A DNA stretch of 64,000 bases from a virus (Duplodnaviria; Heunggongvirae; Uroviricota; Caudoviricetes). How positions within the stretch are numbered: the stretch's first letter is position 1; every line of letters begins with the position of its first letter. Under the pieces are notes generated by a model. It was not told the origin of the DNA. It was given only the letters and a program-made list of their open reading frames with translations, and searched no databases. Below are positions 20,737 to 64,000 of the stretch, in pieces. The DNA is taken from the IMG/VR virus record IMGVR_UViG_3300000944_000006, positions 18,380-82,379 of that record; one strand, 5' to 3'. The position numbers and the translations under genes were made by a program.

Positions 20737-21100
20737 GTCTTTGCGTAACCGTGTCTACAAATCGAAAATCTTCAAATGTTAATTCGACTGTATGTGAAGG
20801 AAAATTGAAAGATGTGCTATGTATAGTTGACACACAAAGAATAGCTTCAAAATATAAAATAGATTTTTCTTTGTTAAAATGATTTATAACACGTCTTAGA
20901 ATTGAATTTGCGAAGTCAGTGTTCATTTGTTCATCGCTCGTAGGAAAAATATGTGCATAAATCTTGTGCGTACCTACAAAATAACTAACCATAACATTGC
21001 CACTATCTGTAATAATGACATCCCATGCAGTAGAAAAATCTATTTTAAATTTTTGCGGCGTTTCTAACATGGTTGAAATCTTTCTTTTCTTTAAAAGCAC
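20723..21100 (-). CDS. small protein, MYKYKI-family-like (QKFKIDFST)
   Basis: N-terminal region similar to the neighbouring gene. Confidence 0.4.
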   Translation of the reverse strand: MLLKKRKISTMLETPQKFKIDFSTAWDVIITDSGNVMVSYFVGTHKIYAHIFPTSDEQMNTDFANSILRRVINHFNKEKSILYFEAILCVSTIHSTSFNFPSHTVELTFEDFRFVDTVTQRHVQI

Positions 21101-22448
21101 CGTTATTATAAACTGTCGTTAGTTTATTGTCATCAAGTATATCATCTTCGCCTGTTGTATATTCTCCATTTAGATTAACAGATGTCAGAAATCCTTTTTT
21201 GAATTTCTTTGAATTGTTGGTGAATGATTTGAATGCGGCACGGCGTCCACCATCATCAATAAAAGAATTGGCAGAAGACATAAACTGAAACGTGTTTTTC
21301 GAAACATTTTGGTACATGCTTCCGCGCATACACAGCACAAAGTTGTTAATAGATACTTTACTTGCCTTACATAACTTAACAAAATTTTCAAAATCTTTTA
21401 GAGACTGCCAATCATACTGGAACATAATTTTAACACGATGCGAAATGCGATATCCACGGTCTGTTGTTGTCTGGGGGAAAGTTGCCAAAATCTTTTCCAT
21501 AAGCGCAATGACTTCTTCTTGTGTGATGCCGTTACCACATTTAAGATGCACTTTACGTGTTGTATATGATTCTATTTTTTCTTTTAATATTTCGCATATA
21601 TATGTTTCAACAGCATCTTCGGCATTATGTGTGTCAATAGTTAATGCGGTATTATCTGGCGTTTGCTCGCTGTCAAAGCTTTCTAAAAAGTGTTGATATG
21701 CAAGAACTTCGTTTTGAACGCCCCACGACAATGTGACAAGATTGTCATTTCCATTATATCCACTATTATCTGTAAAGAAATTAGAATAAATTTCATTTCC
21801 AATATTTACGGCAGATGTTGCTTCTGTTGTGTCAAAATTTATAAGATGTGCGATAGCTGTTATATCTGCTGTTTCCTTCGAAGACATTTCAGAAAAGCTT
21901 TCATCATGCAGTACAATATCTTCTGGGCCAATATCATCATATCCAATAGACGTTTCTTCGTCTATAATATCTTTTAAAATTTTCTTTATTTCTCGCGAAA
22001 TTGTAGCAACTGTGGATGGTAGCCATATCGCACGTAACAAAGCCTTTTCTATGTGCGACACAAGCCATGCACACTTAGGGTCTGTGTTGATGACTTGGTA
22101 TAAAGGCGTCTTAAACGGTACAACAGACCCTTCTGGCAGGGCTTGTATTTTTATTGGTATAGCGCCGTCATATGTTTTTAAAATATATTCCCATCCTTCG
22201 TAATTAAATTCCATACCAGATTTTTCTGCAACATTTTGTGCAATTTTCAAATCATCTTCTGTGATAGGTTTCGAAAGATGTTGATTTATAAAAAGGTGAT
22301 GTCCTGTATAGACCATTTCCTTAATAGGTTTGTACTTATCGTCAGACGAACCATTTGCTTCACCACACACAGACGCGTGTTCTAATGTTAATTGGTAATG
22401 ACGTGCAGCGTCAAGTTTGTGGAATAATGTGTTAAGAATAATGCTCAT
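21045..22448 (-). CDS. nicotinamide phosphoribosyltransferase (NAMPT/NadV) family protein, divergent; possibly non-catalytic
   Basis: Block EGWEYILKTYDGAIPIKIQALPEGSVVPFKTPLYQVINTDPKCAWLVSHIEKALLRAIWLPSTVATISREIKKIL aligns closely with NAMPT ([74 protein letters not shown]). Where NAMPT has HDFGYRG the phage protein has HDESFSE, and the His247-equivalent position appears to be Asp. Confidence 0.7.
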   Translation of the reverse strand: MSIILNTLFHKLDAARHYQLTLEHASVCGEANGSSDDKYKPIKEMVYTGHHLFINQHLSKPITEDDLKIAQNVAEKSGMEFNYEGWEYILKTYDGAIPIKIQALPEGSVVPFKTPLYQVINTDPKCAWLVSHIEKALLRAIWLPSTVATISREIKKILKDIIDEETSIGYDDIGPEDIVLHDESFSEMSSKETADITAIAHLINFDTTEATSAVNIGNEIYSNFFTDNSGYNGNDNLVTLSWGVQNEVLAYQHFLESFDSEQTPDNTALTIDTHNAEDAVETYICEILKEKIESYTTRKVHLKCGNGITQEEVIALMEKILATFPQTTTDRGYRISHRVKIMFQYDWQSLKDFENFVKLCKASKVSINNFVLCMRGSMYQNVSKNTFQFMSSANSFIDDGGRRAAFKSFTNNSKKFKKGFLTSVNLNGEYTTGEDDILDDNKLTTVYNNGAFKEKKDFNHVRNAAKI

Positions 22449-39753: not shown

Positions 39754-39822
39754 ATGTCGCGCGAACATATTAATGTATTCGAAATTCCAGAAGATGAAAT
39801 TGTACATCATGTCGAAGCATAG
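39754..39822 (+). pseudogene. 22-codon minigene retaining only the C-terminal family motif (MSREHINVFEIPEDEIVHHVEA), preceded by a strong SD
   Basis: AGGAGAA 9 nt before the ATG. The peptide ends with the IPEDEI signature of the FKYKLTG family, whose intact members follow directly downstream. Confidence 0.4.
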
Positions 39823-40087
39823 ATACAAATATAAATTGACGGGGGAAATTGAGGAAGGCATTTTTAGTAATTTCTATATGTGGTGCAGTTCGAATAACAC
39901 AGGCAATAAAAATATATTTTTAGGCATTAAAGAATTAGAATCATATAATCTTGGAATTTCCACAGTGTATTTTACTTTGCCGAAAACCATTAATTCCTAT
40001 ATAGCACATGATAAATCTACTATTGTCACTTATTCAATACCAAATGGTGTTGTAGAAATTATATCGGTTGTATCACATGATTCATAA
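39809..40087 (+). CDS. small protein, FKYKLTG...Y-x-IP family member
   Basis: MSKHRYKYKLTGEIEEG ... YSIPNGVVEII. Start set at the ATG at 39809. Confidence 0.5.
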   Translation: MSKHRYKYKLTGEIEEGIFSNFYMWCSSNNTGNKNIFLGIKELESYNLGISTVYFTLPKTINSYIAHDKSTIVTYSIPNGVVEIISVVSHDS

Positions 40088-40355
40088 TTACAAAGTAACA
40101 TGCGAAGTGCAACAACTTAACCGTGGAGTAATTTATCTATATCTCAATGTTTATAAGAATGGTGTTGGTAATAAAATGATTTGTATAGATTCTAATTTAC
40201 TAGAACCATATATTAACATAGGAAACGTAATTTTATATTTTATCACCAAAAATAAAATTCATACTTACTACAGTAAATCGAAAAGTGGTATAACATATGA
40301 TGTTTATACAATACCAGATGACGACATAAGGATTGTCCGATATGTTCAAATATAA
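40068..40355 (+). CDS. small protein, same family
   Basis: C-terminus YDVYTIPDDDIRIV. Confidence 0.5.
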   Translation: MYHMIHNYKVTCEVQQLNRGVIYLYLNVYKNGVGNKMICIDSNLLEPYINIGNVILYFITKNKIHTYYSKSKSGITYDVYTIPDDDIRIVRYVQI

Positions 40356-40629
40356 ATTGACAGGTATTATAACAGATTGTGATGGTGAAACATCCTTATA
40401 CCATTATGTCTCTGAAGAAAAAGAGATATATGTTGATTGTCCCAAATTGCAAAATATACACACAAACAATTCAAAAGTAACTGTATATTTTACAACACCA
40501 AAGTTTATAGAATCTTATTTAAATACAAGCGACAGCGACAGTAATTATGATGTTTATACAATACCAGAAGACGAAATGGAAATTATGTCAAGCGATATCG
40601 TCATAGATAAATGGGAAGATGGTAGTTAA
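40333..40629 (+). CDS. small protein, same family
   Basis: MSDMFKYKLTGIITDCDG ... YDVYTIPEDEMEIM. Confidence 0.5.
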   Translation: MSDMFKYKLTGIITDCDGETSLYHYVSEEKEIYVDCPKLQNIHTNNSKVTVYFTTPKFIESYLNTSDSDSNYDVYTIPEDEMEIMSSDIVIDKWEDGS

Positions 40630-40976
40630 ACGTCTTTTTCTTCGGCAGATTTCTTAGAAGCTTCTTTTAGGTCTTTATAATCTTGCTCACACCAAAATCC
40701 CCTAATATATAAAAGCCTGTCAACATGCTTTGCACCACACTTAATTCTGTATCCGCCTGCAATCTTGTTATGCACAATCATATGACAGTCTTTACAAAGT
40801 GTTATGCCATTATCTACATCAAACCTTAATTCAGGACTGTATGTGGCGTGTTTAATGTGATGTGCATGGCGATTTTGTTTGGAACCACAGCACTGACAAA
40901 CTTTGTCACGCTTAACAACAGCAACTTTCCACATTCTATATTCTTTGGTTTTTCTCCAAGCTTGTTTACTAGACAT
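40626..40976 (-). CDS. HNH homing endonuclease
   Basis: CQCCGSKQNRHAHHIKH...NGITLCKDCHMIVHN forms an HNH zinc-binding/catalytic motif. Confidence 0.7.
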   Translation of the reverse strand: MSSKQAWRKTKEYRMWKVAVVKRDKVCQCCGSKQNRHAHHIKHATYSPELRFDVDNGITLCKDCHMIVHNKIAGGYRIKCGAKHVDRLLYIRGFWCEQDYKDLKEASKKSAEEKDV

Positions 40977-40978
40977 AT

Positions 40979-41245
40979 TTACGACTTCCCATAAAGAATT
41001 TCATATGCGGCGATAAGATGGTCGACGGCATTTTCAAATTGATATTCAGAAGATATACCCGCTTTACGAATACGGGCTTTGATGCTTTTTAAATCTTTAA
41101 TAGATTTATTTTTTACAGCGAAGTCAATAGAACGATACATGCCCGAAAATTCATGCATGTTGTTAGGTGTTTTAGATGCTCCCAGACGTTCGTTAATTTC
41201 ACGAACTTCATCAAGCCTATGTTTAAGTGTATTGTTATTGCTCAT
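40979..41245 (-). CDS. hypothetical protein (88 aa)
   Basis: ORF. A TATAAATA box (41251-41258, minus strand) lies 5 nt upstream of the ATG. Confidence 0.45.
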   Translation of the reverse strand: MSNNNTLKHRLDEVREINERLGASKTPNNMHEFSGMYRSIDFAVKNKSIKDLKSIKARIRKAGISSEYQFENAVDHLIAAYEILYGKS

Positions 41246-41529
41246 ACACCTATTTATAGTGAATCTATTCTATGTTAGAACAGTTTAAGTACGCTTGTAC
41301 CAGAATAACGTCCAACACGGCGGTTTTTACGGCGGCGGTAAGCAGAAGATACACGCGGCTTATCAGATACAACTGTTTTATTGTTGTTATTCTGGCTAGG
41401 TGTTTGGTTTTTCATCTTTGCATGTCCTTTTTAAAATATTAAAGATTGATTAAGGATATACTTATAATTTCATCACGAAAAAAAGTAGATACGTTTTGGC
41501 AATACAGCTATGCATTTATGCAAGGTGAA

Positions 41530-41602
41530 AATCAAAATAAATGTTGTAATGCACAACATACTGTGATAGAATGATTGTAGAAACGATTTGGGAGAATCAA
41601 AT
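41530..41602 (+). promoter_or_regulatory. early promoter/leader cassette copy A (TTGTAA-N17-TAGAAT, palindrome TGTTGTAATGCACAACA, leader ATGATTGTAGAAACGATTTGGGAGAATCAAAT-ATG)
   Basis: -35 at 41544-41549, -10 at 41567-41572. The 32-nt leader with GGGAGAA is identical to that of copy B. Confidence 0.65.
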
Positions 41603-41875
41603 ATGGCTTTTAAGTTCGAAAATATTGCTGAAATAGGTGAAACTATTAAATCATTTAGTTTTAAACCATTTCCAGATAGAGAAGACATGTATGTCCAAGG
41701 TAAAGTTATTGCCAAAGGTGATATAAATCATCCTACGCATGGTAACTACTATAAAGGATATACGGTCATAGCAGAAGTTTCAACAGATGGTAATATCAAA
41801 CAAGGCGACACCTTCTATGTTCCGTTTGAACTTTCTTTTATGGACTTTGATGAACGTGTTTCTAAAGTTGACTAA
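41603..41875 (+). CDS. hypothetical protein (90 aa) expressed from cassette copy A
   Basis: MAFKFENIAEIGE. Start ATG placed 8 nt after GGGAGAA. Confidence 0.55.
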   Translation: MAFKFENIAEIGETIKSFSFKPFPDREDMYVQGKVIAKGDINHPTHGNYYKGYTVIAEVSTDGNIKQGDTFYVPFELSFMDFDERVSKVD

Positions 41876-42447
41876 AGTGAAGTAGCAAGTCCAGTATGCT
41901 TTTCTATAGACTTCAAAAGCATATCGTTATATATGCCTTCGTCTTTAGATTTTGTTTTAACAGACGTTCCTCTTACAGAAAGATATTCAACATCATATAA
42001 ATCCATTGACGTAAGTGTTATACGCACGACATTAACGCCTTTTGAATTTCTTCCTATGCGAAATTGTAGGCCATCATTAGAACCAACAAGTTTTTTTGCT
42101 CCTATCATATAAAGGGCTTTGTTGCCAATCTGCCTAACGATTTCTTTCGAAACAGTCATATTAGTAGCTTCGTTTAAACTTGTTTGTGATACTTTACCTG
42201 TTTTAATAGGGTTACTTCCGACAACATATGTTTTTAAAGAACCTGTGCCTTTATATATTTTATATTGAGTGCCAGACTTTATGTTATATTTTTTAACAGC
42301 AGATTTGGCTTTTTCATTTAAACTTTCCAAGGAAAATTCGACTACTTTGTTAATGTTTCCAGAAAATTCACACACATATACTGTTTTATCAGAAGATTTT
42401 CCTTCACGAACAAGTTCTAATTTTTCAACCAATAGTTTATGTGTCAT
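41872..42447 (-). CDS. hypothetical protein (191 aa)
   Basis: ORF. Confidence 0.5.
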   Translation of the reverse strand: MTHKLLVEKLELVREGKSSDKTVYVCEFSGNINKVVEFSLESLNEKAKSAVKKYNIKSGTQYKIYKGTGSLKTYVVGSNPIKTGKVSQTSLNEATNMTVSKEIVRQIGNKALYMIGAKKLVGSNDGLQFRIGRNSKGVNVVRITLTSMDLYDVEYLSVRGTSVKTKSKDEGIYNDMLLKSIEKHTGLATSL

Positions 42448-42448
42448 A

Positions 42449-43945
42449 TTATATTTTCTCCCACCTATCCGTTATAGGGCGTCCTACAGGGGCCATAGAA
42501 AAGTTTTTGTATCCATACTTAGATATAAGATTAACAATGTTCTTAACGTACTCATGATTGCAGTCAGACACCAAACGATTTACTAAACCATGTTCATCAA
42601 TATATTCCAGTGTTAAAACACAATGGTCGTAATCATGTGAATGGTCGTCATTAATTGAACATACAGTAAGACGTAGCGCATCTTTGGGGAAGTTGTAATC
42701 CTGTCTAAGACGATAATAAACTTCCAATGCCATGTCTTCGCAGTTATGTCCTAAAATACCATTTTCAAAAACAAATGTAGACGTTCCTGCTACTGTTATA
42801 TCGTAACACTTCTTCACGCCATTAGAAGTAATATCTTTAGTTTTTATCCTAGTTTGCCCAAGACCTTCAAAACCATAGTCTTTTTGATGTGAAGAATTTT
42901 TGTTATATATTACTCTATATATAGGCTGTGTTCCAGAACCGCCATGTTTCTCTTGCGTGTAAATTCTAGCAGACTTACCAACACGCAGTAAAGCGGCCTG
43001 TATCCATTCAGCAAATTTTTTACATGACGTTGAATATGTTTTATCAGGTTCCGTACCCCATCCACCGTTACTAGATTTTACATGATAATGTCCATCACCT
43101 AAAAAATATCCTTCAAGTATATAATTTAGACATACTTCTGGAAGATTTAAGTATTTGTCCATACGAATATCAAAAGAATTTTCCTTAAGTGGTTTTAAGA
43201 AATCCTTAAACCAAGACTTCAAAAATCTTACACAAGGAACACCAGAATTATTTTTAAATAATGTATAAGGAATTTTATATTTATCTAAAATAGGAAGAAT
43301 AAATTCAGGAATGTCATGTCCAGATGTAGAAACTTTACTAATTTTATTACTTCCCTGCGGACGGTCTACCCATCCTTCTGCAAGATAATGTCCCACAACA
43401 AACCAAATATCGTCATCAAGAACATTCTCAATTTCTGTGTATGGTAGATTTAAAGCACACGGAACATATTCCCAATGAACACTCTTTCCATCAATAATTT
43501 CTTTCAATTTTCTTTTTGTGTATCCGTTTTGTTGTTGTTTTTCTTTAGACCACATATTATGATTTTCTGTAACAACAATTTCATTTCCGTTATGAAACGG
43601 TACAGTAAAGGTTTCTAAATTTCCTTTATCCATTTTATTTATGATAACTTTATCAATATATTTTTTTTCGACAAAATCATAAGACATACAAACATCACCT
43701 ATTTGTGCATCTTTGATTGGAACAGCTACATATTCATCATTACGTTTTAACCATATTTTTTGATTTTCTTCTACACAATCACCTAATAGAATAGGTCTGC
43801 CAAAGAAATCCACATCAACAGTAGGACGCGTCCAGTGTTCAGGTACTGCCCAATTATTTTGGTCTGAACGCCATACGAAAATAGATTTAACATCCTCATG
43901 TACTTTTTTAAAAGTAGCTACCTGTGCGTGTGTAAGTTTTAACAT
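42449..43945 (-). CDS. intein-containing protein: 153-aa extein resembling a papain/transglutaminase-like Cys hydrolase, split by a 345-aa LAGLIDADG intein
   Basis: Intein blocks: C at N-junction (LLGD/CVEENQ), VVTENHNMW (T-x-x-H block B), two LAGLIDADG motifs (FVVGHYLAEGWV, ILEGYFLGDGHY), C-terminal YDITV...FENGILGHN followed by C. Spliced extein junction GDCEDMA (G-x-C-x-x-x-A) plus downstream HSHDYDH suggests a Cys-His-Asp hydrolase. Confidence 0.6.
   Translation of the reverse strand: MLKLTHAQVATFKKVHEDVKSIFVWRSDQNNWAVPEHWTRPTVDVDFFGRPILLGDCVEENQKIWLKRNDEYVAVPIKDAQIGDVCMSYDFVEKKYIDKVIINKMDKGNLETFTVPFHNGNEIVVTENHNMWSKEKQQQNGYTKRKLKEIIDGKSVHWEYVPCALNLPYTEIENVLDDDIWFVVGHYLAEGWVDRPQGSNKISKVSTSGHDIPEFILPILDKYKIPYTLFKNNSGVPCVRFLKSWFKDFLKPLKENSFDIRMDKYLNLPEVCLNYILEGYFLGDGHYHVKSSNGGWGTEPDKTYSTSCKKFAEWIQAALLRVGKSARIYTQEKHGGSGTQPIYRVIYNKNSSHQKDYGFEGLGQTRIKTKDITSNGVKKCYDITVAGTSTFVFENGILGHNCEDMALEVYYRLRQDYNFPKDALRLTVCSINDDHSHDYDHCVLTLEYIDEHGLVNRLVSDCNHEYVKNIVNLISKYGYKNFSMAPVGRPITDRWEKI
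42743..43777 (-). mobile_element. LAGLIDADG homing-endonuclease intein (about 345 aa)
   Basis: Boundaries computed from junctions ...PILLGD|CVEEN and ...GILGHN|CEDMA. Confidence 0.6.
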
Positions 43946-43946
43946 A

Positions 43947-44813
43947 TTACTTCGTCAGACTCCAAAATTTATTCATAAGTATATTGAAGTCTTTAGACGT
44001 TCCTGTATTAACAATCTTTTCTACATTAGCAATTGCCTTAGGCGACTTAAGTTGTTTGAAAACTTGCGTCACAAGATTGGCAGATTGCGCGTCTACCAAA
44101 ACTTCTTTCTTATCAGAAAATTTAATTTTCATTGCTTGGTGACGCTTTGTGATATCAAAGATTTGGTTAAGATTTGTGTCTTTAGTTTCGTTTAAAGATT
44201 CTTGCAAAAGGTCTTTTTCTTTAAGAAGTGCTTTTACTCTTTTAATAACATCAGAATCTGTGATAGAATCGGTTTTATATTGTTGGTTTAATTCTCCAAC
44301 TTTTGTACTAACCATAAATTTATTTTTTATGAAATTATTAAGCATTTTAGCGGTTGCGACTTTTTTTGAATCTGTCATGCCAATAAAAATTTTAAACTTT
44401 TTTAAAGATATTGCTCCTGCAAAGTAGTCATCCATAGCCATTAAAGCGCCTTTACTATCTACACCATAATTACCACTTGTTTTGAAGTTTTTTGTTTGTG
44501 CTATTATTTTAGATTCGTTTAACATAGACGATTGAACGACTTTACCAGTTCCTTCCTTCACTTCTTCTAAACGACTTTCAAAAAGTTTCGTAGGAAATGT
44601 AAATCCGTCATATTCGTATTTTTCTGTTTTATTTTCTTCGTTCATTTTTTTATTTTTCCAAGTAGCTATTACTTTACCTTTATCTAACAAGTTTACAACT
44701 TTATGTAGACCAATTTTAGCATGGTCAAATTCAACTTTTGCCATACGTCCTATAGAAAATGTTCCTAACGACTTCGTTTCACCGTATTTGTCGGTTGCTT
44801 TTACCTCATACAT
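43947..44813 (-). CDS. structural-module protein related to the downstream leader-bearing trio (shares the LG-x-x-G repeat unit), lacks the N-terminal leader
   Basis: Start set at MYEVKATDKYGE. Segment KYGETKSLGTFSIGRMAKVEFDH resembles EKYFLGVKGHSGTAMLFEYN of the 44818 gene. Confidence 0.45.
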   Translation of the reverse strand: MYEVKATDKYGETKSLGTFSIGRMAKVEFDHAKIGLHKVVNLLDKGKVIATWKNKKMNEENKTEKYEYDGFTFPTKLFESRLEEVKEGTGKVVQSSMLNESKIIAQTKNFKTSGNYGVDSKGALMAMDDYFAGAISLKKFKIFIGMTDSKKVATAKMLNNFIKNKFMVSTKVGELNQQYKTDSITDSDVIKRVKALLKEKDLLQESLNETKDTNLNQIFDITKRHQAMKIKFSDKKEVLVDAQSANLVTQVFKQLKSPKAIANVEKIVNTGTSKDFNILMNKFWSLTK

Positions 44814-44817
44814 TTGA

Positions 44818-45156
44818 TTACAAAAACTTCTTAAGGATAGAAGATGTTTTCTTAGTGAGAACAATATCACTATATCTTTTGTTGTTATATTCAAAAAGCA
44901 TAGCTGTTCCGCTATGACCTTTAACACCTAAAAAATATTTTTCACCCACTTCTAAAACAACTGAATTTTTATTTTCTTCTACTTTGTCACCTTTAAAATT
45001 TTTAAAACGAATTGGTTTCCCTACACGACCTTTGTTTAATTTCACATACATGTCGCGTAAATCTAAGTCTGTTTTAATGTTTTCTCTCAAAACGTCTTCA
45101 TCGTCATTATTTGATGAACGCATTTCTACAAGATGTTGTTTAATATTCTTTGTCAT
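44818..45156 (-). CDS. putative capsid-targeted internal protein 1 (N-terminal MTKNIKQHLVE/MR leader)
   Basis: N-terminus conserved with the 45376 and 45671 genes and ends in L-x-E, the T4 prohead protease cleavage motif. Confidence 0.5.
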   Translation of the reverse strand: MTKNIKQHLVEMRSSNNDDEDVLRENIKTDLDLRDMYVKLNKGRVGKPIRFKNFKGDKVEENKNSVVLEVGEKYFLGVKGHSGTAMLFEYNNKRYSDIVLTKKTSSILKKFL

Positions 45157-45164
45157 GTTATTTC

Positions 45165-45374
45165 CTATCCTTCTTCATCACTCACGCACAATTCGCTCTG
45201 TGGATTATCTTCGCAGAATAATCTTGCACCGTAAGGGGCTGTGATTGTAGTGTTATCTCTTATGGCAGTATCTTCACTACTTCCTTTGGTTGTGGCACAC
45301 CCTAATGAAGACGCTGCAACCATAAGACAAACGAATAAAAAACAAAGTGATTTTAATTTAAAATTCTTGAACAT
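45165..45374 (-). CDS. small lipoprotein
   Basis: Signal peptide with lipobox SSLGC. Confidence 0.45.
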   Translation of the reverse strand: MFKNFKLKSLCFLFVCLMVAASSLGCATTKGSSEDTAIRDNTTITAPYGARLFCEDNPQSELCVSDEEG

Positions 45375-45375
45375 G

Positions 45376-45696
45376 TTATTTCCTAAATATTCTTCCAGAA
45401 TTAAAGATTATACCTTCGTCTTTAAGATAATCTTTATAGTGCGAATACTCTTCTACAAATTCATCATAAGCCTTTTCGACTTTTTTTATGCGATTTAAAG
45501 CTTTACGTGACTTTCTAACTTTAAATTCTTTTTTAAGATTTTGTACATCTTTTCTAAGTTCGAAAACTACGTTGTCAAATTTTTCGACAACGTTATCACC
45601 AGAAATCCCGTTAGTTAAACCTTCATCAAGACGTATTTCTGCAAGATGTTCGTGGATTTTCTTTGTCATGTTATTTTTGATTCTCTTCTTTAACAT
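45376..45696 (-). CDS. putative capsid-targeted internal protein 2 (MTKKIHEHLAE/IR leader)
   Basis: Shared N-terminal leader. Confidence 0.5.
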   Translation of the reverse strand: MLKKRIKNNMTKKIHEHLAEIRLDEGLTNGISGDNVVEKFDNVVFELRKDVQNLKKEFKVRKSRKALNRIKKVEKAYDEFVEEYSHYKDYLKDEGIIFNSGRIFRK

Positions 45697-46660
45697 ATTC
45701 AGGTGTTTTATAATTAGATTTAGTGTTTTTATTACCTAGCATATATGCTTCGCCAAGTGCGTCTTGAACAGACGGGGAAAACTTTAATTTATATTTCTTT
45801 GCGATTTTTTCCAAAGCGTCACTAAAGGAAACTTTCTTACCTTCGTTCAAAGTACCATCACTTTTTTGCTTTTTAGCGACTTTAGGATTATCAACAACAC
45901 GTCCAACAGCAGCTTTACGTGCAACATGAACTTGGTAGCCGTTGCGACCAATAATTCCATAACCTTTACGCGACTTTAAGAAGTTGTTTGCATCACTTTC
46001 TGTGTTGAAACAATATGTCTGATACATTTTACCATCTTTTTTAAATACGGAACGAACATCACCATCAGAAGCAGATTGTATTTTATTCCATTCCGTAGGT
46101 TTTACAGGTTCGTTTTCGTCAAGAGAAACTTCTTCTTTGAAGTATTCAACTTTACTGTGCGAAATCATTTGACGATAATTACCAGATTTTTTAGGATAGT
46201 CTCTTTCACTTACGCGCGAAGGATTAATTTCTTTCCAAGAATTATTTTGCTTTCCAAGAAATTCGCCTAGTGCATTAGCATTTTTAAAAACTTTAACTTT
46301 ATATCTAGGACGACGACCACTTACAGTCATTTTTTCAAATTCTTTTTCTGCGGCATAAAATTTATTCTCGTTCAGATACCCATCATCAGATTGTTTGACA
46401 GTTACGTTATCACCGCCTTCATTATCTTTAGCAACATGTATCATTTCACCTTGTTTGCCAATAACACCAAGCTTATCACCGCCATTACCAACGATTTTTT
46501 CTATATATGAATTAGCAGCAGATTCGGAATTAAATTTAATAGTATCAAAGATTTTACCATTCTTTTCGAATGTTGACGTAACGCCACAATCAATTTTTTC
46601 TTTGTTAGGGGATTTCTTTGCAGAACGCATTTCCCAAAGGTGTTCGCGAATATTCTTCAT
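45671..46660 (-). CDS. putative capsid-targeted internal protein 3 (MKNIREHLWE/MR leader) with internal duplication
   Basis: Shared leader. Two internal repeats (FDTIKFNSESAANSYIEK...IHVAKDN and YQTYCFNTESDANNFLKS...VHVARKA). Confidence 0.5.
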   Translation of the reverse strand: MKNIREHLWEMRSAKKSPNKEKIDCGVTSTFEKNGKIFDTIKFNSESAANSYIEKIVGNGGDKLGVIGKQGEMIHVAKDNEGGDNVTVKQSDDGYLNENKFYAAEKEFEKMTVSGRRPRYKVKVFKNANALGEFLGKQNNSWKEINPSRVSERDYPKKSGNYRQMISHSKVEYFKEEVSLDENEPVKPTEWNKIQSASDGDVRSVFKKDGKMYQTYCFNTESDANNFLKSRKGYGIIGRNGYQVHVARKAAVGRVVDNPKVAKKQKSDGTLNEGKKVSFSDALEKIAKKYKLKFSPSVQDALGEAYMLGNKNTKSNYKTPEYVKEENQK

Positions 46661-58173: not shown

Positions 58174-59217
58174 TTATAGGTTTTTCCACTGTGTGAACTT
58201 GATTTTTGCATTTAATCCGACATAAGAATTGTCTAAAAAATATTGGTCTAAACCATCCTTTTCAACTTCACCTTGTAGTATCATATCATTTACATCTTTT
58301 GATTTTATATTGTGCGGTAAGAGAGTAACACGATATCCATCATCGATAGTTTTCTTGATATTTCGTAAAGTCTCTTTGTGACGAGTCTCATTATCAAAGA
58401 CTATACATAGCTGATTTTTTGGTATTACGTCTTTAACACGTCCGAATGAAGAACCAGATGCAGAAACAGCATTTCTAAAGAACATTGAATCGAATTGCCC
58501 TTCTGTCACAATAACTTTTTCGGACAAATTTATTTTGTCAAGATTGTATATTAGTGGTGCATTCTCATTCAACTTTACGTGAAGATATTTTATAGGGTGA
58601 TGTTTTTTAAGACTTCGCATAGAAAATCCTATCAAAACACCTTTACGATTTCGGTAAGGAATGATGATACGACCATCTTTACTATTCTTTAATTTCTCTT
58701 TGTATTTCGGAAGTATGTTAGACATCTTTGATATATCGTCCATATAATATAAGTCAGATATATCAGGCAACTTTCTTGCGTTTAAATAAGCCCGTGCAGG
58801 ATGGCTTCTTTCTAATTTCTGCACGGGCAGCATCAATTCATGAAGTACCGACTTTTCTTCTTCAATTACTACTGGCGCAAACACAGCATTTGTAAGGTCT
58901 ACATGTGTATCAGATTGTTTGATAGAAGACTTTCCTTTATTTAGATAAACATTTTTTACAACTTCATTGTAAATAGACGTGTCGAAATCTTTTAAGAAAA
59001 ATTGATATTTTTTGTGATATTCGCAGTTATGACATTTATACCAAAGGTTTTTGTCATGCGTGTTAACATATATGTATCCTCTTGCGCGAGTAGAAACACG
59101 CTTAGAGTCGCCACATATGGGACAAGAAAAGTTCCAAAGGTATGTATTTACCTTCTTAAAATTTTTAAGTTTGTACTGAATCATTGAAACTGATTCAGCA
59201 AGGTCATGTAATTCCAT
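58174..59217 (-). CDS. DNA primase, T4 gp61-like (zinc ribbon + TOPRIM)
   Basis: FSCPICGDSK...ARGYIY...YKCHNCEY zinc ribbon, VTEGQFDS and FDNETRH TOPRIM acidic motifs, SKDVNDMI block as in T4 gene 61 protein. Confidence 0.7.
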   Translation of the reverse strand: MELHDLAESVSMIQYKLKNFKKVNTYLWNFSCPICGDSKRVSTRARGYIYVNTHDKNLWYKCHNCEYHKKYQFFLKDFDTSIYNEVVKNVYLNKGKSSIKQSDTHVDLTNAVFAPVVIEEEKSVLHELMLPVQKLERSHPARAYLNARKLPDISDLYYMDDISKMSNILPKYKEKLKNSKDGRIIIPYRNRKGVLIGFSMRSLKKHHPIKYLHVKLNENAPLIYNLDKINLSEKVIVTEGQFDSMFFRNAVSASGSSFGRVKDVIPKNQLCIVFDNETRHKETLRNIKKTIDDGYRVTLLPHNIKSKDVNDMILQGEVEKDGLDQYFLDNSYVGLNAKIKFTQWKNL

Positions 59218-61653: not shown

Positions 61654-63093
61654 TTAAATTCCTTTTATTATATTTAGAACAAATTTTCTTACGCGCAGGT
61701 CAACCTTTTCGCCCATCAATACAGACGCGAACATTTCTGCCCAAAATTCTCTTACATTTGTTCTAGCATATTCAGTCACGAACCATGAATCATCATAGAT
61801 AAAATCGCCATTTCTTCTTTTGGTTTTTGGTGTTAGTATTCTACGAAGCTTTTGTAATGTTGTCGGACGGCCTTTATAAGTCATGGTAACAAATCCTTTT
61901 GTAAGCATTTCATGAGACTTTCCCATATAATCCCCACTACCATCTGATGTTACGACTATGCCAAAAGGTTTATTTCTAGCACCTTCTTTACCAAAAGACA
62001 GTATTTGGCGACCAGAAGACATATCCAAGACATCTCTTACCATTTCTTCGCCCTTAGAAAGACCATATTTTTTATTTTTGCTTTTATTCCAATAAAATTT
62101 AATATCGTTTGTGTTTTTTATAGATGAAAAAAGGGCTTTTTTAAAAACTGTATAATCTGCGCTACGAACCATGTGCCTTTTAAATTCTTCATCTTTTCTT
62201 ATTTTAGCGTTTTTACCATTAGACTTTTTAGCTTGCGAATAAACTTCTTCTAATGCCTTTCTATCCTTTGAAGAAAAATATTCATAATCTATTTTGTGAC
62301 CTATTTCATGAATAATAACCCGAATAAAAAATCGGTCTGTGTCATGGCGAGGGTCGATAACAAGTTCTTTACTATTAGAATAGTAAAGTCCTGCTGCACG
62401 TCTTGATGAAATAGTCCCAATTATTATATCAGAATTGTCCCATACATTTTCTATTTTTGTACGTTTCATGATACGATATGCTACATTAAGACTTTTCTTA
62501 ACTTTATCTAACTTCTTTGGGTCAAAATTTTCTCTTACCTTAATTTCATTTTTACCTACTTTGATAGTGTTGGTAGATGTTTTGTTAAAAGATGATTTTA
62601 CTTCATCCCAATTAACTTTTTCGGAAAATCTTTTAACCCAATCATGATTAAGCTTTTTATTATTTGTTGCCCATTTATAAAAATCTATAGACGTTTTAAA
62701 AACAATTTTTTCAAGGGCTTTTGGAAATCTTCTTGATACAGCTTCACATGCTTTTAAGTACATGTCCACATTACCATCAAGTTTAGGATAATGAAATGCA
62801 TGTCTAAGTTCTTCGACATAATCATACATTAAACTGTCTGAATATTCCAAACCACTCATAAATTCATTATCAGACCCGTCCCATGATGTGTTGATAAATT
62901 TAGAAAAGTCTTTCTTAGCAATAAACACGTAATGTTTTTCATCCAAACCATTACTATTTTCCGTGTTATAGGGAAAAATAACCATATGATTAGTACGAAA
63001 AGGTGTGCGCGTTGCCATTCTTGCTATACAAGAATTAGAATCGTCGTAATACGGCCTTTCGAATCTTGCCATTTTATTATTCACCATCCACAT
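61654..63093 (-). CDS. large protein with HExxH zinc-metallopeptidase motif
   Basis: VIIHEIGHKIDYEY contains HEIGH. Confidence 0.45.
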   Translation of the reverse strand: MWMVNNKMARFERPYYDDSNSCIARMATRTPFRTNHMVIFPYNTENSNGLDEKHYVFIAKKDFSKFINTSWDGSDNEFMSGLEYSDSLMYDYVEELRHAFHYPKLDGNVDMYLKACEAVSRRFPKALEKIVFKTSIDFYKWATNNKKLNHDWVKRFSEKVNWDEVKSSFNKTSTNTIKVGKNEIKVRENFDPKKLDKVKKSLNVAYRIMKRTKIENVWDNSDIIIGTISSRRAAGLYYSNSKELVIDPRHDTDRFFIRVIIHEIGHKIDYEYFSSKDRKALEEVYSQAKKSNGKNAKIRKDEEFKRHMVRSADYTVFKKALFSSIKNTNDIKFYWNKSKNKKYGLSKGEEMVRDVLDMSSGRQILSFGKEGARNKPFGIVVTSDGSGDYMGKSHEMLTKGFVTMTYKGRPTTLQKLRRILTPKTKRRNGDFIYDDSWFVTEYARTNVREFWAEMFASVLMGEKVDLRVRKFVLNIIKGI

Positions 63094-63748
63094 AAAAAAT
63101 GTTTGGATATTTTTTAGACTTTACTCTATTTCTATAATAGCTTGGGTTCTTTTTCAAAAGTCTTTCTGCTGTTCCACATGTTTCATAAATTACACCATCT
63201 ACAGAAATTCTTTTGCCCGCACTAGGATTATTTCTACCCAATTTAGATTTTCGTAATTTAGTTTTAGTTTCTTCTGAATGTTTATATCCATTTTTCATTC
63301 GTGTTGATATAGATTTTTCAACAATTTCTTTTGGAATGGTTCTGCCGATTAAAGATTTAGATATATTTTCTCTTCGTTTTTTTGTATGTTTTGTTCCTTT
63401 TAAAGAATTTGAAATTTTCAATTTTGTTTCATCAGAATGTTGATATCCGTGCCTTCCATATTTTTCATTGCCGCCAACACCACCTTGCCTTAAATTATAT
63501 GTGTTAGGATTTTTTACAAATTCTTTATTTACTACCTCTTTTTCCTTCTTAAAAATTTCTTCCTTTGACAAACATTCAAATAATATTTCTTTTTTAAAGT
63601 TTTTCCTACCATATTTTTTTATAGATTTTTTAATAACTACGCCACTTCCCAAATATCCATCATTTGGGTTAGATGTTTTGTGAACGCCAACATAAATTTT
63701 TCCATTTATAACATTTGTTATCTTATAAAGCGTATATATTTTTTTCAT
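63077..63748 (-). CDS. GIY-YIG homing endonuclease (second copy)
   Basis: MKKIYTLYKITNVINGKIYVGVHKT...YLGSG... plus NUMOD3-like repeats. About 60% identical over the N-terminal domain to the 782..1420 protein. Start set at MKKIY. TATAAATA (63754-63761, minus) lies 5 nt upstream. Confidence 0.7.
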   Translation of the reverse strand: MKKIYTLYKITNVINGKIYVGVHKTSNPNDGYLGSGVVIKKSIKKYGRKNFKKEILFECLSKEEIFKKEKEVVNKEFVKNPNTYNLRQGGVGGNEKYGRHGYQHSDETKLKISNSLKGTKHTKKRRENISKSLIGRTIPKEIVEKSISTRMKNGYKHSEETKTKLRKSKLGRNNPSAGKRISVDGVIYETCGTAERLLKKNPSYYRNRVKSKKYPNIFYVDGE

Positions 63749-63771
63749 AATATTATTTATAAGATAACAAA

Positions 63772-64000
63772 TCAGTTGAACCAATCCGCTAACTGACTTA
63801 CAACAAGTTTTTTCCACATTGGGTCTGATAAATCAGCCGCATAAGGCACAAGATATCCAAATTCACGAATAGGTATGTACTTGTCTTTCGGCAGTCTACT
63901 AAACCAATCTTTACAAAGTTTTAAAAGAACTTTTTTATTCTCTAAAGGAACGTCATATCTATCGCCAACAAATTCAAGAATATCTTCAAGACGCCCAAAA
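63772..64000 (-). CDS. partial CDS running off the window edge (C-terminal about 75 codons)
   Basis: Open minus-strand frame ending ...QLADWFN stop at 63772. The N-terminus lies outside the window. Confidence 0.4.
   Translation of the reverse strand, partial: FGRLEDILEFVGDRYDVPLENKKVLLKLCKDWFSRLPKDKYIPIREFGYLVPYAADLSDPMWKKLVVSQLADWFN

Follow-up and report, generated by a model that had tools for sequence, protein, structure and literature searches.

An intein-split gene of a T4-like phage predicted to encode a minimal BTLCP cysteine peptidase, with the insertion directly before the putative catalytic cysteine

The gene analysed here comes from a T4-like phage and lies in a stretch of DNA of 64,000 nucleotides (the window), where a frame that is open across 1,497 nt, in a genome of 33% GC, encodes a small protein interrupted by an intein. 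The locus raises the question of what kind of protein the two flanking halves form once they are joined, and whether the cysteine that follows the intein also serves in catalysis. The preliminary description had proposed a small papain/transglutaminase-like hydrolase with the intein inserted exactly at its putative catalytic cysteine, and had considered the protein unassignable to any named one. Our results agree with the former proposal and contradict the latter, since the family does have a name: the gene very probably encodes a minimal, signal-less enzyme of the BTLCP / Peptidase_C93 family (PF06035; the LapG/HvyA family), split by a mobile class-1 LAGLIDADG intein immediately before the nucleophile.

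The boundaries given earlier (intein at aa 57-401, spliced extein of 153 aa, junction GD-C-EDMA) are reproduced exactly by a codon-by-codon check (Table 1). A protein identical to the 498-aa window protein occurs on a 9.3-kb Logan contig, and the cluster record of the identical protein comprises JGI and Logan sources, the longest contig being of 151 kb. A megablast search with positions 41000-46000 against 50,697 phage records returned no match, hence there is no close sequenced isolate. The neighbours of the gene, both in the window and in a syntenic contig (L002), are replication and nucleotide-metabolism genes together with unknown ORFs.

Table 1. Window coordinates of the intein-split gene, its parts and its key residues
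Feature	Position	Strand	Basis or remark
Precursor ORF (N-extein + intein + C-extein)	42449..43945	-	ATG start, 498 aa; ORF list and sequence
N-extein, aa 1-56 (MLKL...PILLGD)	43778..43945	-	invariant D28, W38 and D56 inside (alignment A1)
Codon of Asp56	43778..43780	-	codon-by-codon check
Intein, aa 57-401, 345 aa	42743..43777	-	Cys1, TENH block B, two LAGLIDADG motifs, C-terminal His-Asn
Codon of intein Cys1	43775..43777	-	codon-by-codon check
LAGLIDADG motif 1, aa 182-192, IWFVVGHYLAEG (GHYLAEG)	43370..43402	-	acidic E190; G185, H186, A189, E190 and G191 invariant in 19 inteins
LAGLIDADG motif 2, aa 277-286, LEGYFLGDGH	43088..43117	-	acidic D284; G283, D284 and G285 invariant in 19 inteins
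Codon of intein Asn401	42743..42745	-	codon-by-codon check
C-extein, aa 402-498 and stop codon (CEDMALEV...RWEKI*)	42449..42742	-	ORF and sequence
Cys402 (extein Cys57): intein +1 nucleophile and predicted catalytic nucleophile	42740..42742	-	33/33 in A1, 19/19 in A2; codon-by-codon check
His441 (extein His96): predicted triad histidine	42623..42625	-	33/33 in A1, 19/19 in A2
Asp461 (extein Asp116): predicted triad aspartate	42563..42565	-	A1 column: D 27, E 5, G 1 of 33

The insertion looks like a canonical class-1 intein with a two-motif LAGLIDADG homing endonuclease, for which both splicing and cleavage are predicted. The residues of the splicing blocks are present (C57, the T-E-N-H of VVTENHNMW, H400-N401 and C402), and the Pfam model LAGLIDADG_3 (PF14528) matches with 46.6 bits against a cut-off of 22.5 (E 4e-12), in keeping with the preliminary assignment of a canonical LAGLIDADG intein; the Intein_splicing model reaches 27.8 bits, which is under its cut-off of 35.8 (E 2.5e-6), and the match to Hint is weak. 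In a structural model of the precursor the intein is confident (high pLDDT) and beta-rich at both ends, and the N-extein is of low confidence. GC3 is 0.18 in the intein and 0.31 in the exteins. A search of PDB sequences with the intein found nothing, and the PHROGs families matched by the full-length protein were exclusively intein-containing ones, e.g. an anaerobic RNR family. Among isolate phages, tblastn retrieved only inteins of ~24% identity, located in nrdD genes of Lactococcus phages and in a methyltransferase gene of a Mannheimia phage, from which we conclude that this intein lineage is absent from the isolate collection. The nrdA gene of the window likewise carries a class-1 intein with a LAGLIDADG endonuclease, whose Cys+1 is a catalytic cysteine of the host protein (site N-L|C-S-E). 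The similarity between the two window inteins is only marginal (25% over 83 aa, E 0.005), and we therefore rejected the derivation of one from the other.

The insertion is genuine and is no reading artefact, because an intein-free homologue (P0002, 154 aa, 57% identical) is contiguous across GD-C, with the unbroken sequence ILRGDCDDFMLEVYY (GDCDDF motif), and because the two halves of the window protein match adjoining DNA there: in a tblastn search of the P0002 contig (L002, 160.9 kb), aa 5-57 and aa 393-497 were matched side by side, and no match was obtained for aa 58-392. This contig is collinear with the window, the order of the primase, nrdA, nrdB, a methyltransferase-like gene and others being kept; P0002 occupies the syntenic position of the window gene, and the nrdA gene of L002 is also intein-free. 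The DNA at the junction is identical in 11 of 11 positions around GGTGAT|TGCGA, and the empty site of the L002 type reads ATTCTAAGAGGTGATTGCGATGATTTC.

The same site is occupied in other proteins. We found 18 further metagenomic proteins with homologous full-length inteins, all located at GD|C ... H(N/Q)|C(E/D), in exteins that are highly divergent transglutaminase-like proteins. The inteins of this intein-bearing set (P0169-P0187, at least two of which are found on large phage-like contigs) are 37-56% identical to the window intein according to BLASTP. Their exteins share the GD|C site with the window extein and the D, C and H are invariant, but they are only ~17-25% identical to it, many are longer (200-267 aa), and many match Transglut_core (PF01841) alongside, or in place of, PF06035. 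Among the 19 proteins, C1, E134, D228 and C+1 (intein numbering) are 100% conserved, and 49 intein columns as well as both acidic residues of the endonuclease are conserved at 90% or more; in some members block B is altered, or the last two residues are (FQ or HQ). The mean pairwise identity is 48% for the inteins and 23% for the exteins, with an extreme pair (P0176 and P0177) at 83% and 26%, respectively, and the nearest partner is the same for intein and extein in only three of the 19 proteins. As the identity of the inteins exceeds that of the exteins, the comparison suggests that the intein has spread laterally among divergent hosts, although differing evolutionary rates, instead of transfer, could in part produce such a difference. 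With ~19 protein clusters sharing the exact insertion site, we are dealing with an intein family and not with a mere curiosity.

The relationships of the extein are remote. A word-index protein search with the extein alone found nothing, and homologues were recovered only by an exhaustive HMMER search, followed by a profile of the resulting alignment (A1, 33 homologues). Neither the extein nor P0002 has a family in PHROGs, where the more distant small homologues fall only into phrog_12671 ("peptidase") and phrog_22465 (unknown). Small BTLCPs in isolate phages, as detected by tblastn, are confined to a few Xanthomonas jumbo phages and Rhizobium phage L338C, in which they are annotated as hypothetical or as "periplasmic protein". 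Most small phage BTLCPs have no assigned function in PHROGs.

The family membership emerges upon removal of the intein: the 153-aa extein, spliced in silico, matches PF06035 with 28.8 bits, just over the cut-off of 27 (E 1.2e-6), and the unspliced protein scores 16.7 bits, below threshold. PF06035 is precomputed on all 120 matches listed for profile A1. Compared with PDB sequences, this profile retrieves LapG (4u65_E, E 9.4e-15; 4fgo_A, E 1.2e-10), aligning GDC(D/E)D, DH and LD opposite GDCED, AH and LD of LapG, a match that the single extein attains at only E ~0.4. The AF2 model of the spliced extein (pLDDT 95.1, pTM 0.89) has a transglutaminase-like fold closest to LapG, the best Foldseek match (E 6e-6, probability 1.0), and a fold search of BFVD also gave significant matches (E 1e-7 to 7e-4). 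The extein has no profile or fold match to NlpC/P60 or CHAP cell-wall peptidases. We also considered the protein as an orthologue of LapG; the equivalog model NF045674 (CystProtLapG) of NCBIfam gives 18.7 bits against a cut-off of 320, and the window protein is therefore not filed as LapG.

Six residues (D28, W38, D56, C57, H96 and W150) are invariant in the 33 homologues of alignment A1. Cys57, the Cys+1 of the intein, falls opposite the nucleophile of LapG (GDCEDYA), DvhG and HvyA and opens helix 57-72 of the AF2 model; His96 falls opposite RAHMVL of LapG and stands at the start of strand 96-104; the Asp116 column falls opposite the Asp of LVLD and follows strand 110-115. A cysteine at the start of a helix, a histidine at the start of a strand and an aspartate after the next strand are as expected for this fold, and on the grounds of alignment and secondary-structure position we predict that Cys57, His96 and Asp116 form a triad at the positions used in the family. 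The cluster HSHDYDH (extein residues 90-96, 33-39 aa past the cysteine), which had been suggested as the source of both His and Asp, would thus supply the histidine (its last residue, H96, conserved in 33 of 33) and not the acid, as the triad aspartate lies 20 residues beyond H96 in VSDCN. Since homology points to the catalytic cysteine directly, the argument from the preference of inteins for active sites is now unnecessary.

Residues that bind Ca2+ in characterised relatives also appear to be kept. D28 and D56 are aligned with D111 and D134 of LapG, which are Ca2+ ligands, and D56 and E58 correspond to D316 and E318 of DvhG, and by offset to D134 and E136 of LapG; this conservation of D-C-E and of an N-lobe Asp suggests a putative Ca2+ site. 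Mutagenesis of relatives bears on the same positions: the C317A and D316A/E318A variants of DvhG are inactive (PMC13090378), and the function of HvyA, a BTLCP that prevents capsulation in Caulobacter crescentus, requires C192, H226, D241 and W178 (PMC4241560), which are equivalent to C57, H96, D116 and W38 of the window extein.

LapG (P. fluorescens / L. pneumophila; 4U65 chain E, 4FGO) and DvhG are Ca2+-dependent periplasmic proteases, and have in common with the window extein the PF06035 domain, the G-D-C-E-D motif of nucleophile and Ca2+ ligands, the aligned His and Asp, and the D111 equivalent (D28). The window protein differs from them in being phage-encoded, lacking a signal peptide and being interrupted by an intein; the identity is ~21%, the extein has 153 aa compared with 221 positions in the NCBIfam LapG model, and, unlike for LapG, a LapD or adhesin partner is absent among the neighbours scanned. 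HvyA is a Sec-exported periplasmic protein of 272 aa encoded in a capsule locus (PMC4241560), whereas the window gene lies among phage replication genes and its product lacks a signal sequence. By inspection we found no signal peptide: the N-terminus MLKLTHAQVATFKKVHEDVK is devoid of a hydrophobic core, and the AF2 model confidently places residues 6-22 of the extein in a helix of the fold. Export to the periplasm, where they act, is shared by the characterised members LapG, HvyA and DvhG (PMC4241560, PMC13090378). An N-terminal signal sequence is typical of characterised BTLCPs and lies outside the Pfam definition.

The position of the intein, between Asp56 (at a Ca2+-ligand position) and the nucleophile Cys57, implies that the 498-aa precursor would have no assembled active site. 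Standard splicing would start with an N-S acyl shift at Cys1 of the intein, followed by trans-thioesterification onto Cys+1, cyclisation of Asn401 and an S-N shift, which would free the ~40-kDa intein/endonuclease and ligate the exteins, restoring the G-D-C-E-D motif. The cysteine that acted as the splicing nucleophile would then be reused as the catalytic thiol, with His96 and Asp116 as partners. Alleles that lack the intein would be cleaved by the released endonuclease at the conserved sequence of the GGTGAT|TGCGA type and would receive a copy of the intein; such homing would account for the presence of homologous inteins at one site in other large phages, whose transglutaminase-like genes are very divergent. 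Both splicing and endonuclease activity are what we infer from these features.

The reaction catalysed by the spliced protein is a separate matter. We infer peptidase, as against deamidase or transamidase, chemistry together with Ca2+ dependence; deamidases, transglutaminases and N-acyltransferases also use the transglutaminase-like fold, so that "protease" would be the default of the family. The roles proposed in the preliminary description (peptidoglycan peptidase, deubiquitinase-like or deamidase effector) are conjectural. A LapG-like fold devoid of protease activity, which with the same Cys-His-Asp triad modifies a host or phage protein as a deamidase, transglutaminase or acyltransferase in the manner of an effector, is an unlikely competitor.

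The conservation of a putative Ca2+ site fits poorly with an enzyme of the cytoplasm, where there is little free Ca2+. The small phage BTLCP may instead be directed at lysis or at the envelope, building up in the cytoplasm like an endolysin until the lesions made by a holin admit it to its target and to Ca2+, and the residues kept opposite the Ca2+ ligands of LapG are consistent with such a role. Some genomic neighborhoods also point in this direction: one homologue (P0044) is located directly upstream of a holin (PF04971, phrog_20) in phage contig L007, another (P0139, in L009) has baseplate/tail genes on one side and, three genes downstream, a GH108 endolysin, and in Xanthomonas phage PhiXhv-12 a weak homologue follows Rz-like spanins and a glycoside hydrolase at a distance of two genes. 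However, no recognisable holin or endolysin is present near the gene in the window or in L002, the contexts of P0003 and of the Rhizobium phage L338C homologue are without lysis genes, and three suggestive contexts out of ~8 are anecdotal and amount to a weak lead, hence we regard a lysis role as doubtful.

It is still more speculative, and in our opinion improbable, that small signal-less BTLCPs are widespread in phages as proteases that use the Ca2+ switch of LapG and hit the host envelope at or near lysis or after membrane permeabilisation, with the intein serving as a zymogen lock. If this were true, the intein would not be purely selfish, as it would hold a potentially toxic protease inactive until splicing, and the release could for example be under redox control via the Cys1/Cys+1 pair. 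Finally, a decayed, splicing-dead intein that leaves the gene an effective pseudogene, or a precursor with a different function, is very improbable, as the sub-threshold Intein_splicing score and the deviations of family members at block B or at their ends (FQ/HQ) are set against a 1,497-nt frame that is open at 33% GC, Cys1, TENH, His-Asn and Cys+1 that are all found in the window copy, acidic endonuclease residues and 49 columns that are at least 90% conserved in 19 proteins, and catalytic residues of the extein that are intact.

The minimal BTLCP enzyme split by a class-1 intein adds a new case to a known phenomenon, and the host family is one for which we found no report of inteins in the literature searched; two intein surveys mention no transglutaminase-like host. 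According to an intein survey, known hosts are strongly biased to replisome proteins, with terminases as common targets in viruses and phages, and the host described here is a transglutaminase-like cysteine peptidase instead of the usual enzyme of replication, nucleotide metabolism or packaging. Our findings extend the range of intein hosts to this group, and the insertion provides an independent marker of the critical codon in an uncharacterised family of small phage proteins. The use of one cysteine for splicing and for predicted catalysis would make the protein a natural conditional protease in which splicing-dependent activation could be studied and engineered, and the apparently intact LAGLIDADG enzyme may offer a new homing specificity centred on GGTGAT|TGCGA.

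Reading the DNA codon by codon, we placed the intein and its flanking exteins as listed in the table. The intein begins with CVEENQKIW, contains VVTENH as block B, and ends with ILGHN, followed by CEDMA of the extein; its two LAGLIDADG motifs read GHYLAEGW and FLGDGH. In comparisons with Pfam, LAGLIDADG_3 scores 46.6 bits (threshold 22.5) and Intein_splicing 27.8 bits, under its threshold of 35.8. In a structural model of the whole precursor the intein is confident; its ends are rich in beta structure, and two repeats of helix plus sheet surround the LAGLIDADG helices. The prediction is poor at N-extein residues 25-55. The gene is packed tightly, with a minus-strand ORF on either side.

Features of the window discussed in the text (intein, extein and residue limits are from codon-by-codon reading of the DNA; arrows mark splice or cleavage junctions)
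Feature	Position	Strand	Remark
Precursor ORF, 498 aa	42449..43945	-	uninterrupted, ATG start
N-extein, 56 aa	43778-43945	-	
Intein, 345 aa	42743-43777	-	
C-extein, 97 aa + stop codon	42449-42742	-	
Asp56	43778-43780	-	last N-extein residue
Intein Cys1	43775-43777	-	
Intein Asn401	42743-42745	-	
Cys+1 (C402)	42740-42742	-	
nrdA, 937 aa	54322-57135	-	interrupted by second LAGLIDADG intein
nrdA intein, 370 aa	55219-56328	-	insertion at ASNL↓C...TFN↓CSEI
T4 gp61-type primase	58174-59217	-	adjoins nrdA
Nicotinamide phosphoribosyltransferase	21045-22448	-	
HNH endonuclease (PF01844)	40626-40976	-	free-standing
phrog_314 homing endonuclease	63077-63817	-	
Three neighbouring ORFs	44818-45156, 45376-45696, 45671-46660	-	just upstream of intein gene
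Three tandem small ORFs (104, 95, 98 aa)	39773-40629	+	slight overlaps
69-aa ORF	45165-45374	-	lipoprotein-type signal (…AASSLGC↓ATT…), further cysteines

The 153-aa extein, spliced in silico, served as the query of an exhaustive HMMER search, which returned 51 proteins, among them the window protein itself (P0001) and a homolog of 154 aa (P0002, 57% identity) that runs unbroken (...PILRGDCDDFMLEVYYRLRQ...) across the insertion site. The latter is encoded on a 160.9-kb metagenomic contig (L002) collinear with the window, the two having the same order of the primase, nrdA, nrdB, a methyltransferase-like gene and several unknown ORFs, at 25-64% protein identity. In a tblastn comparison residues 5-57 and 393-497 of the window protein match adjoining L002 DNA and those in between are unmatched, and the DNA at the junction is identical over 11 bases (GGTGAT↓TGCGA). 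The window and L002 constitute a classic occupied/empty site pair, and the insertion is real. The continuity of P0002 and the tblastn matches, confined to the flanks, bear out the intein proposed in the preliminary description, whose boundaries (56 + 345 + 97 aa) also agree with our reading of the codons.

The spliced extein matches PF06035 (Peptidase_C93; bacterial transglutaminase-like cysteine proteinase, BTLCP) with 28.8 bits (gathering score 27, E 1.2e-6), vs only 16.7 bits for the unspliced protein. A profile built from an alignment of 33 small homologs (A1) retrieved 191 proteins; all 120 of the 120 listed carry a precomputed PF06035 assignment, and several matches bear the name "transglutaminase-like cysteine peptidase". 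Among PDB sequences this profile detects LapG (4u65_E, E 9.4e-15; 4fgo_A, E 1.2e-10), and it aligns the GDC(D/E)D, DH and LD motifs of the family with GDCED, AH and LD of LapG, respectively. The AlphaFold2 model of the spliced extein, calculated with A1, has a pLDDT of 95.1 and a pTM of 0.89, and P. fluorescens LapG is its sole significant match in the PDB according to Foldseek (E 6e-6, probability 1.0). Orthology with LapG was considered and rejected, as the NCBIfam equivalog model gives 18.7 bits vs the cut-off of 320.

Analysis of A1 reveals six invariant residues (D28, W38, D56, C57, H96 and W150, in the numbering of the spliced extein), as well as D or E at position 58 of every sequence and D in 27, E in 5 and G in 1 at position 116. 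The +1 Cys of the intein is the invariant C57 and thus the nucleophile of the family. In the model C57 starts helix 57-72, H96 starts strand 96-104, and D116 follows immediately after the adjacent strand 110-115, positions that match the arrangement expected for the fold. The main interpretation of the preliminary description, namely an intein at the catalytic Cys of a cysteine-hydrolase fold, holds, given this assignment of C57 and the PF06035 and LapG matches. It had also nominated an HSHDYDH cluster as the source of the triad His and Asp; the cluster does provide the triad His, with its final residue (H96, invariant in A1), but the acid is D116, outside the cluster. Counted along the alignment, with C135 presumed to be the nucleophile of LapG, D28, D56 and E58 correspond to D111, D134 and E136 of that protein. 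D111 is a Ca2+ ligand of LapG (eLife paper), in agreement with the C135-based offset. Mutagenesis has been published for the aligned residues of two relatives: DvhG is inactivated by C317A and likewise by the Ca2+-site double mutation D316A/E318A (PMC13090378), and HvyA needs C192, H226 and D241, and its W178S variant is non-functional (PMC4241560). Judging from the alignment, the intein lies between the putative Ca2+-ligand Asp and the nucleophile Cys and divides the catalytic and metal sites, so that the precursor should be inactive until spliced.

A search with the intein alone yielded 19 further proteins (37-56% identity), one of which, P0178, is a fragment. The insertion place is the same in all 18 full-length sequences, with the junctions GD↓C ... 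H(N/Q)↓C(E/D) in 16; P0171 has the N-terminal junction CD↓C, and in P0173 and P0182 the intein ends with FQ rather than H(N/Q). The in-silico spliced exteins of these 18 carriers are about 17-25% identical to that of the window and about 23% to each other, with D56, C57 and H96 invariant; PF06035 is detected in 14/19 spliced exteins and Transglut_core in 13/19. In the alignment of the 19 inteins, conservation reaches 90% or more in 49 columns, including Cys1, Cys+1 and the acidic LAGLIDADG residues E134 and D228 (intein numbering), which argues that both the splicing and the endonuclease functions have been maintained. The mean identity is 48% for inteins vs 23% for exteins (extremes: P0176/P0177, 83% vs 26%; P0171/P0186, 62% vs 18%), and intein and extein share the nearest neighbor in only three of the 19 proteins. 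Because the inteins are far more alike than their hosts and the nearest neighbors mostly differ, we infer, from identities rather than from a tree test, lateral spread through homing into the conserved GDCED-coding site. Two carriers that we looked up reside on large phage-like contigs (234 kb and 46 kb). Seven of the 18 inteins (P0171, P0173, P0176, P0177, P0181, P0182 and P0186) end with Gln instead of Asn (HQ/FQ before Cys+1), and the block B His is missing from some (e.g. TEKSP in P0175, TADSP in P0180); these are non-canonical splicing residues inside one intein family.

The window (GC 30-39%) also encodes nrdB, DNA ligase and an exonuclease. The primase-nrdA arrangement occurs in T4-like cyanophages as well (about 37% identity), hence we conclude that the window represents a distant T4-like myovirus known from metagenomes only; a DNA-level search revealed no close isolate phage. 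The direct neighbors of the intein gene have no recognisable function. By its insertion point, the nrdA intein has as Cys+1 the thiyl-radical cysteine, found in the N-x-C-x-E motif of class I RNR; the syntenic nrdA of L002 (612 aa) is devoid of an intein. The two window inteins exhibit only marginal similarity to each other (25% over 83 aa), and together with the HNH and phrog_314 endonucleases they amount to four homing-type elements in 64 kb. GC3 is lower in the 345-aa intein than in its exteins (0.18 vs 0.31), and deviates in the same direction, to a smaller extent, in the nrdA intein (0.20 vs 0.25 in the host); these AT-rich third positions are compatible with foreign origin or with weaker codon selection. 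The three neighbouring ORFs of the table share the N-terminal motif (K/N)I(K/H/R)(E/Q)HL-E(M/I)R (N-termini: MTKNIKQHLVEMRS, MTKKIHEHLAEIRL and MKNIREHLWEMRS) and look like a paralogous family, whose 329-aa member has several repeated matching places in L002. The tandem small ORFs, on the opposite strand to nearly all other genes, share YK(Y)KLTG/YKVTC near the N-terminus and VYFT..K.I.SY, with YDVYTIP(D/E)D in two of the three, and are apparent paralogs too. The 69-aa ORF has a counterpart in L002 (48% over 52 aa) and lies two genes upstream of the gene for the BTLCP; its product may be a spanin-like lipoprotein or an exclusion lipoprotein.

The intein gene encodes a protein of the BTLCP fold, its aligned triad and Ca-ligand set intact, broken by an intact-looking intein. 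The intein probably splices, and the ligated 18-kDa product would be a Cys-dependent hydrolase, most likely a site-specific protease of the LapG or DvhG kind, since no relatives are nearer than these two and, of the BTLCP members found, they alone are defined biochemically. Deamidase or transamidase chemistry on the same fold would not be separable from such proteolysis by fold alone. Export is a feature of the characterised BTLCPs (HvyA: PMC4241560; DvhG: PMC13090378), whereas the window protein lacks a signal peptide, its N-terminus being a confident helix of the fold; a LapG- or DvhG-like protease encoded here would either act in the cytoplasm or reach the envelope by another route. A lysis- or envelope-related role of small signal-less BTLCPs can be proposed only tentatively: homologs lie immediately upstream of a holin in one phage contig (L007 8001-8644), near a GH108 endolysin in another (L009 8001-9799) and near Rz-like spanins in Xanthomonas phage PhiXhv-12 (L006 857-4426), but no lysis-gene neighbors were seen in the other contexts examined, the window included.

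Taken separately, the elements of this system are well known: insertion of inteins at catalytic residues, homing by LAGLIDADG endonucleases, and the BTLCP enzymes. We found no description of an intein in a transglutaminase-like/BTLCP protein in the full-text literature, a coverage that excludes subscription journals and InBase; the 25 best-ranked of 120 publications in which inteins and transglutaminase both occur deal solely with protein engineering, labelling or transglutaminase enzymology, and two intein surveys do not mention a transglutaminase-like host. No member of this intein lineage occurs in the collection of isolate phages, where the small BTLCP has just a few copies, annotated as hypothetical. 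The site described here is a newly documented intein insertion site, common to about 19 metagenomic protein clusters and made up of components of known kinds.
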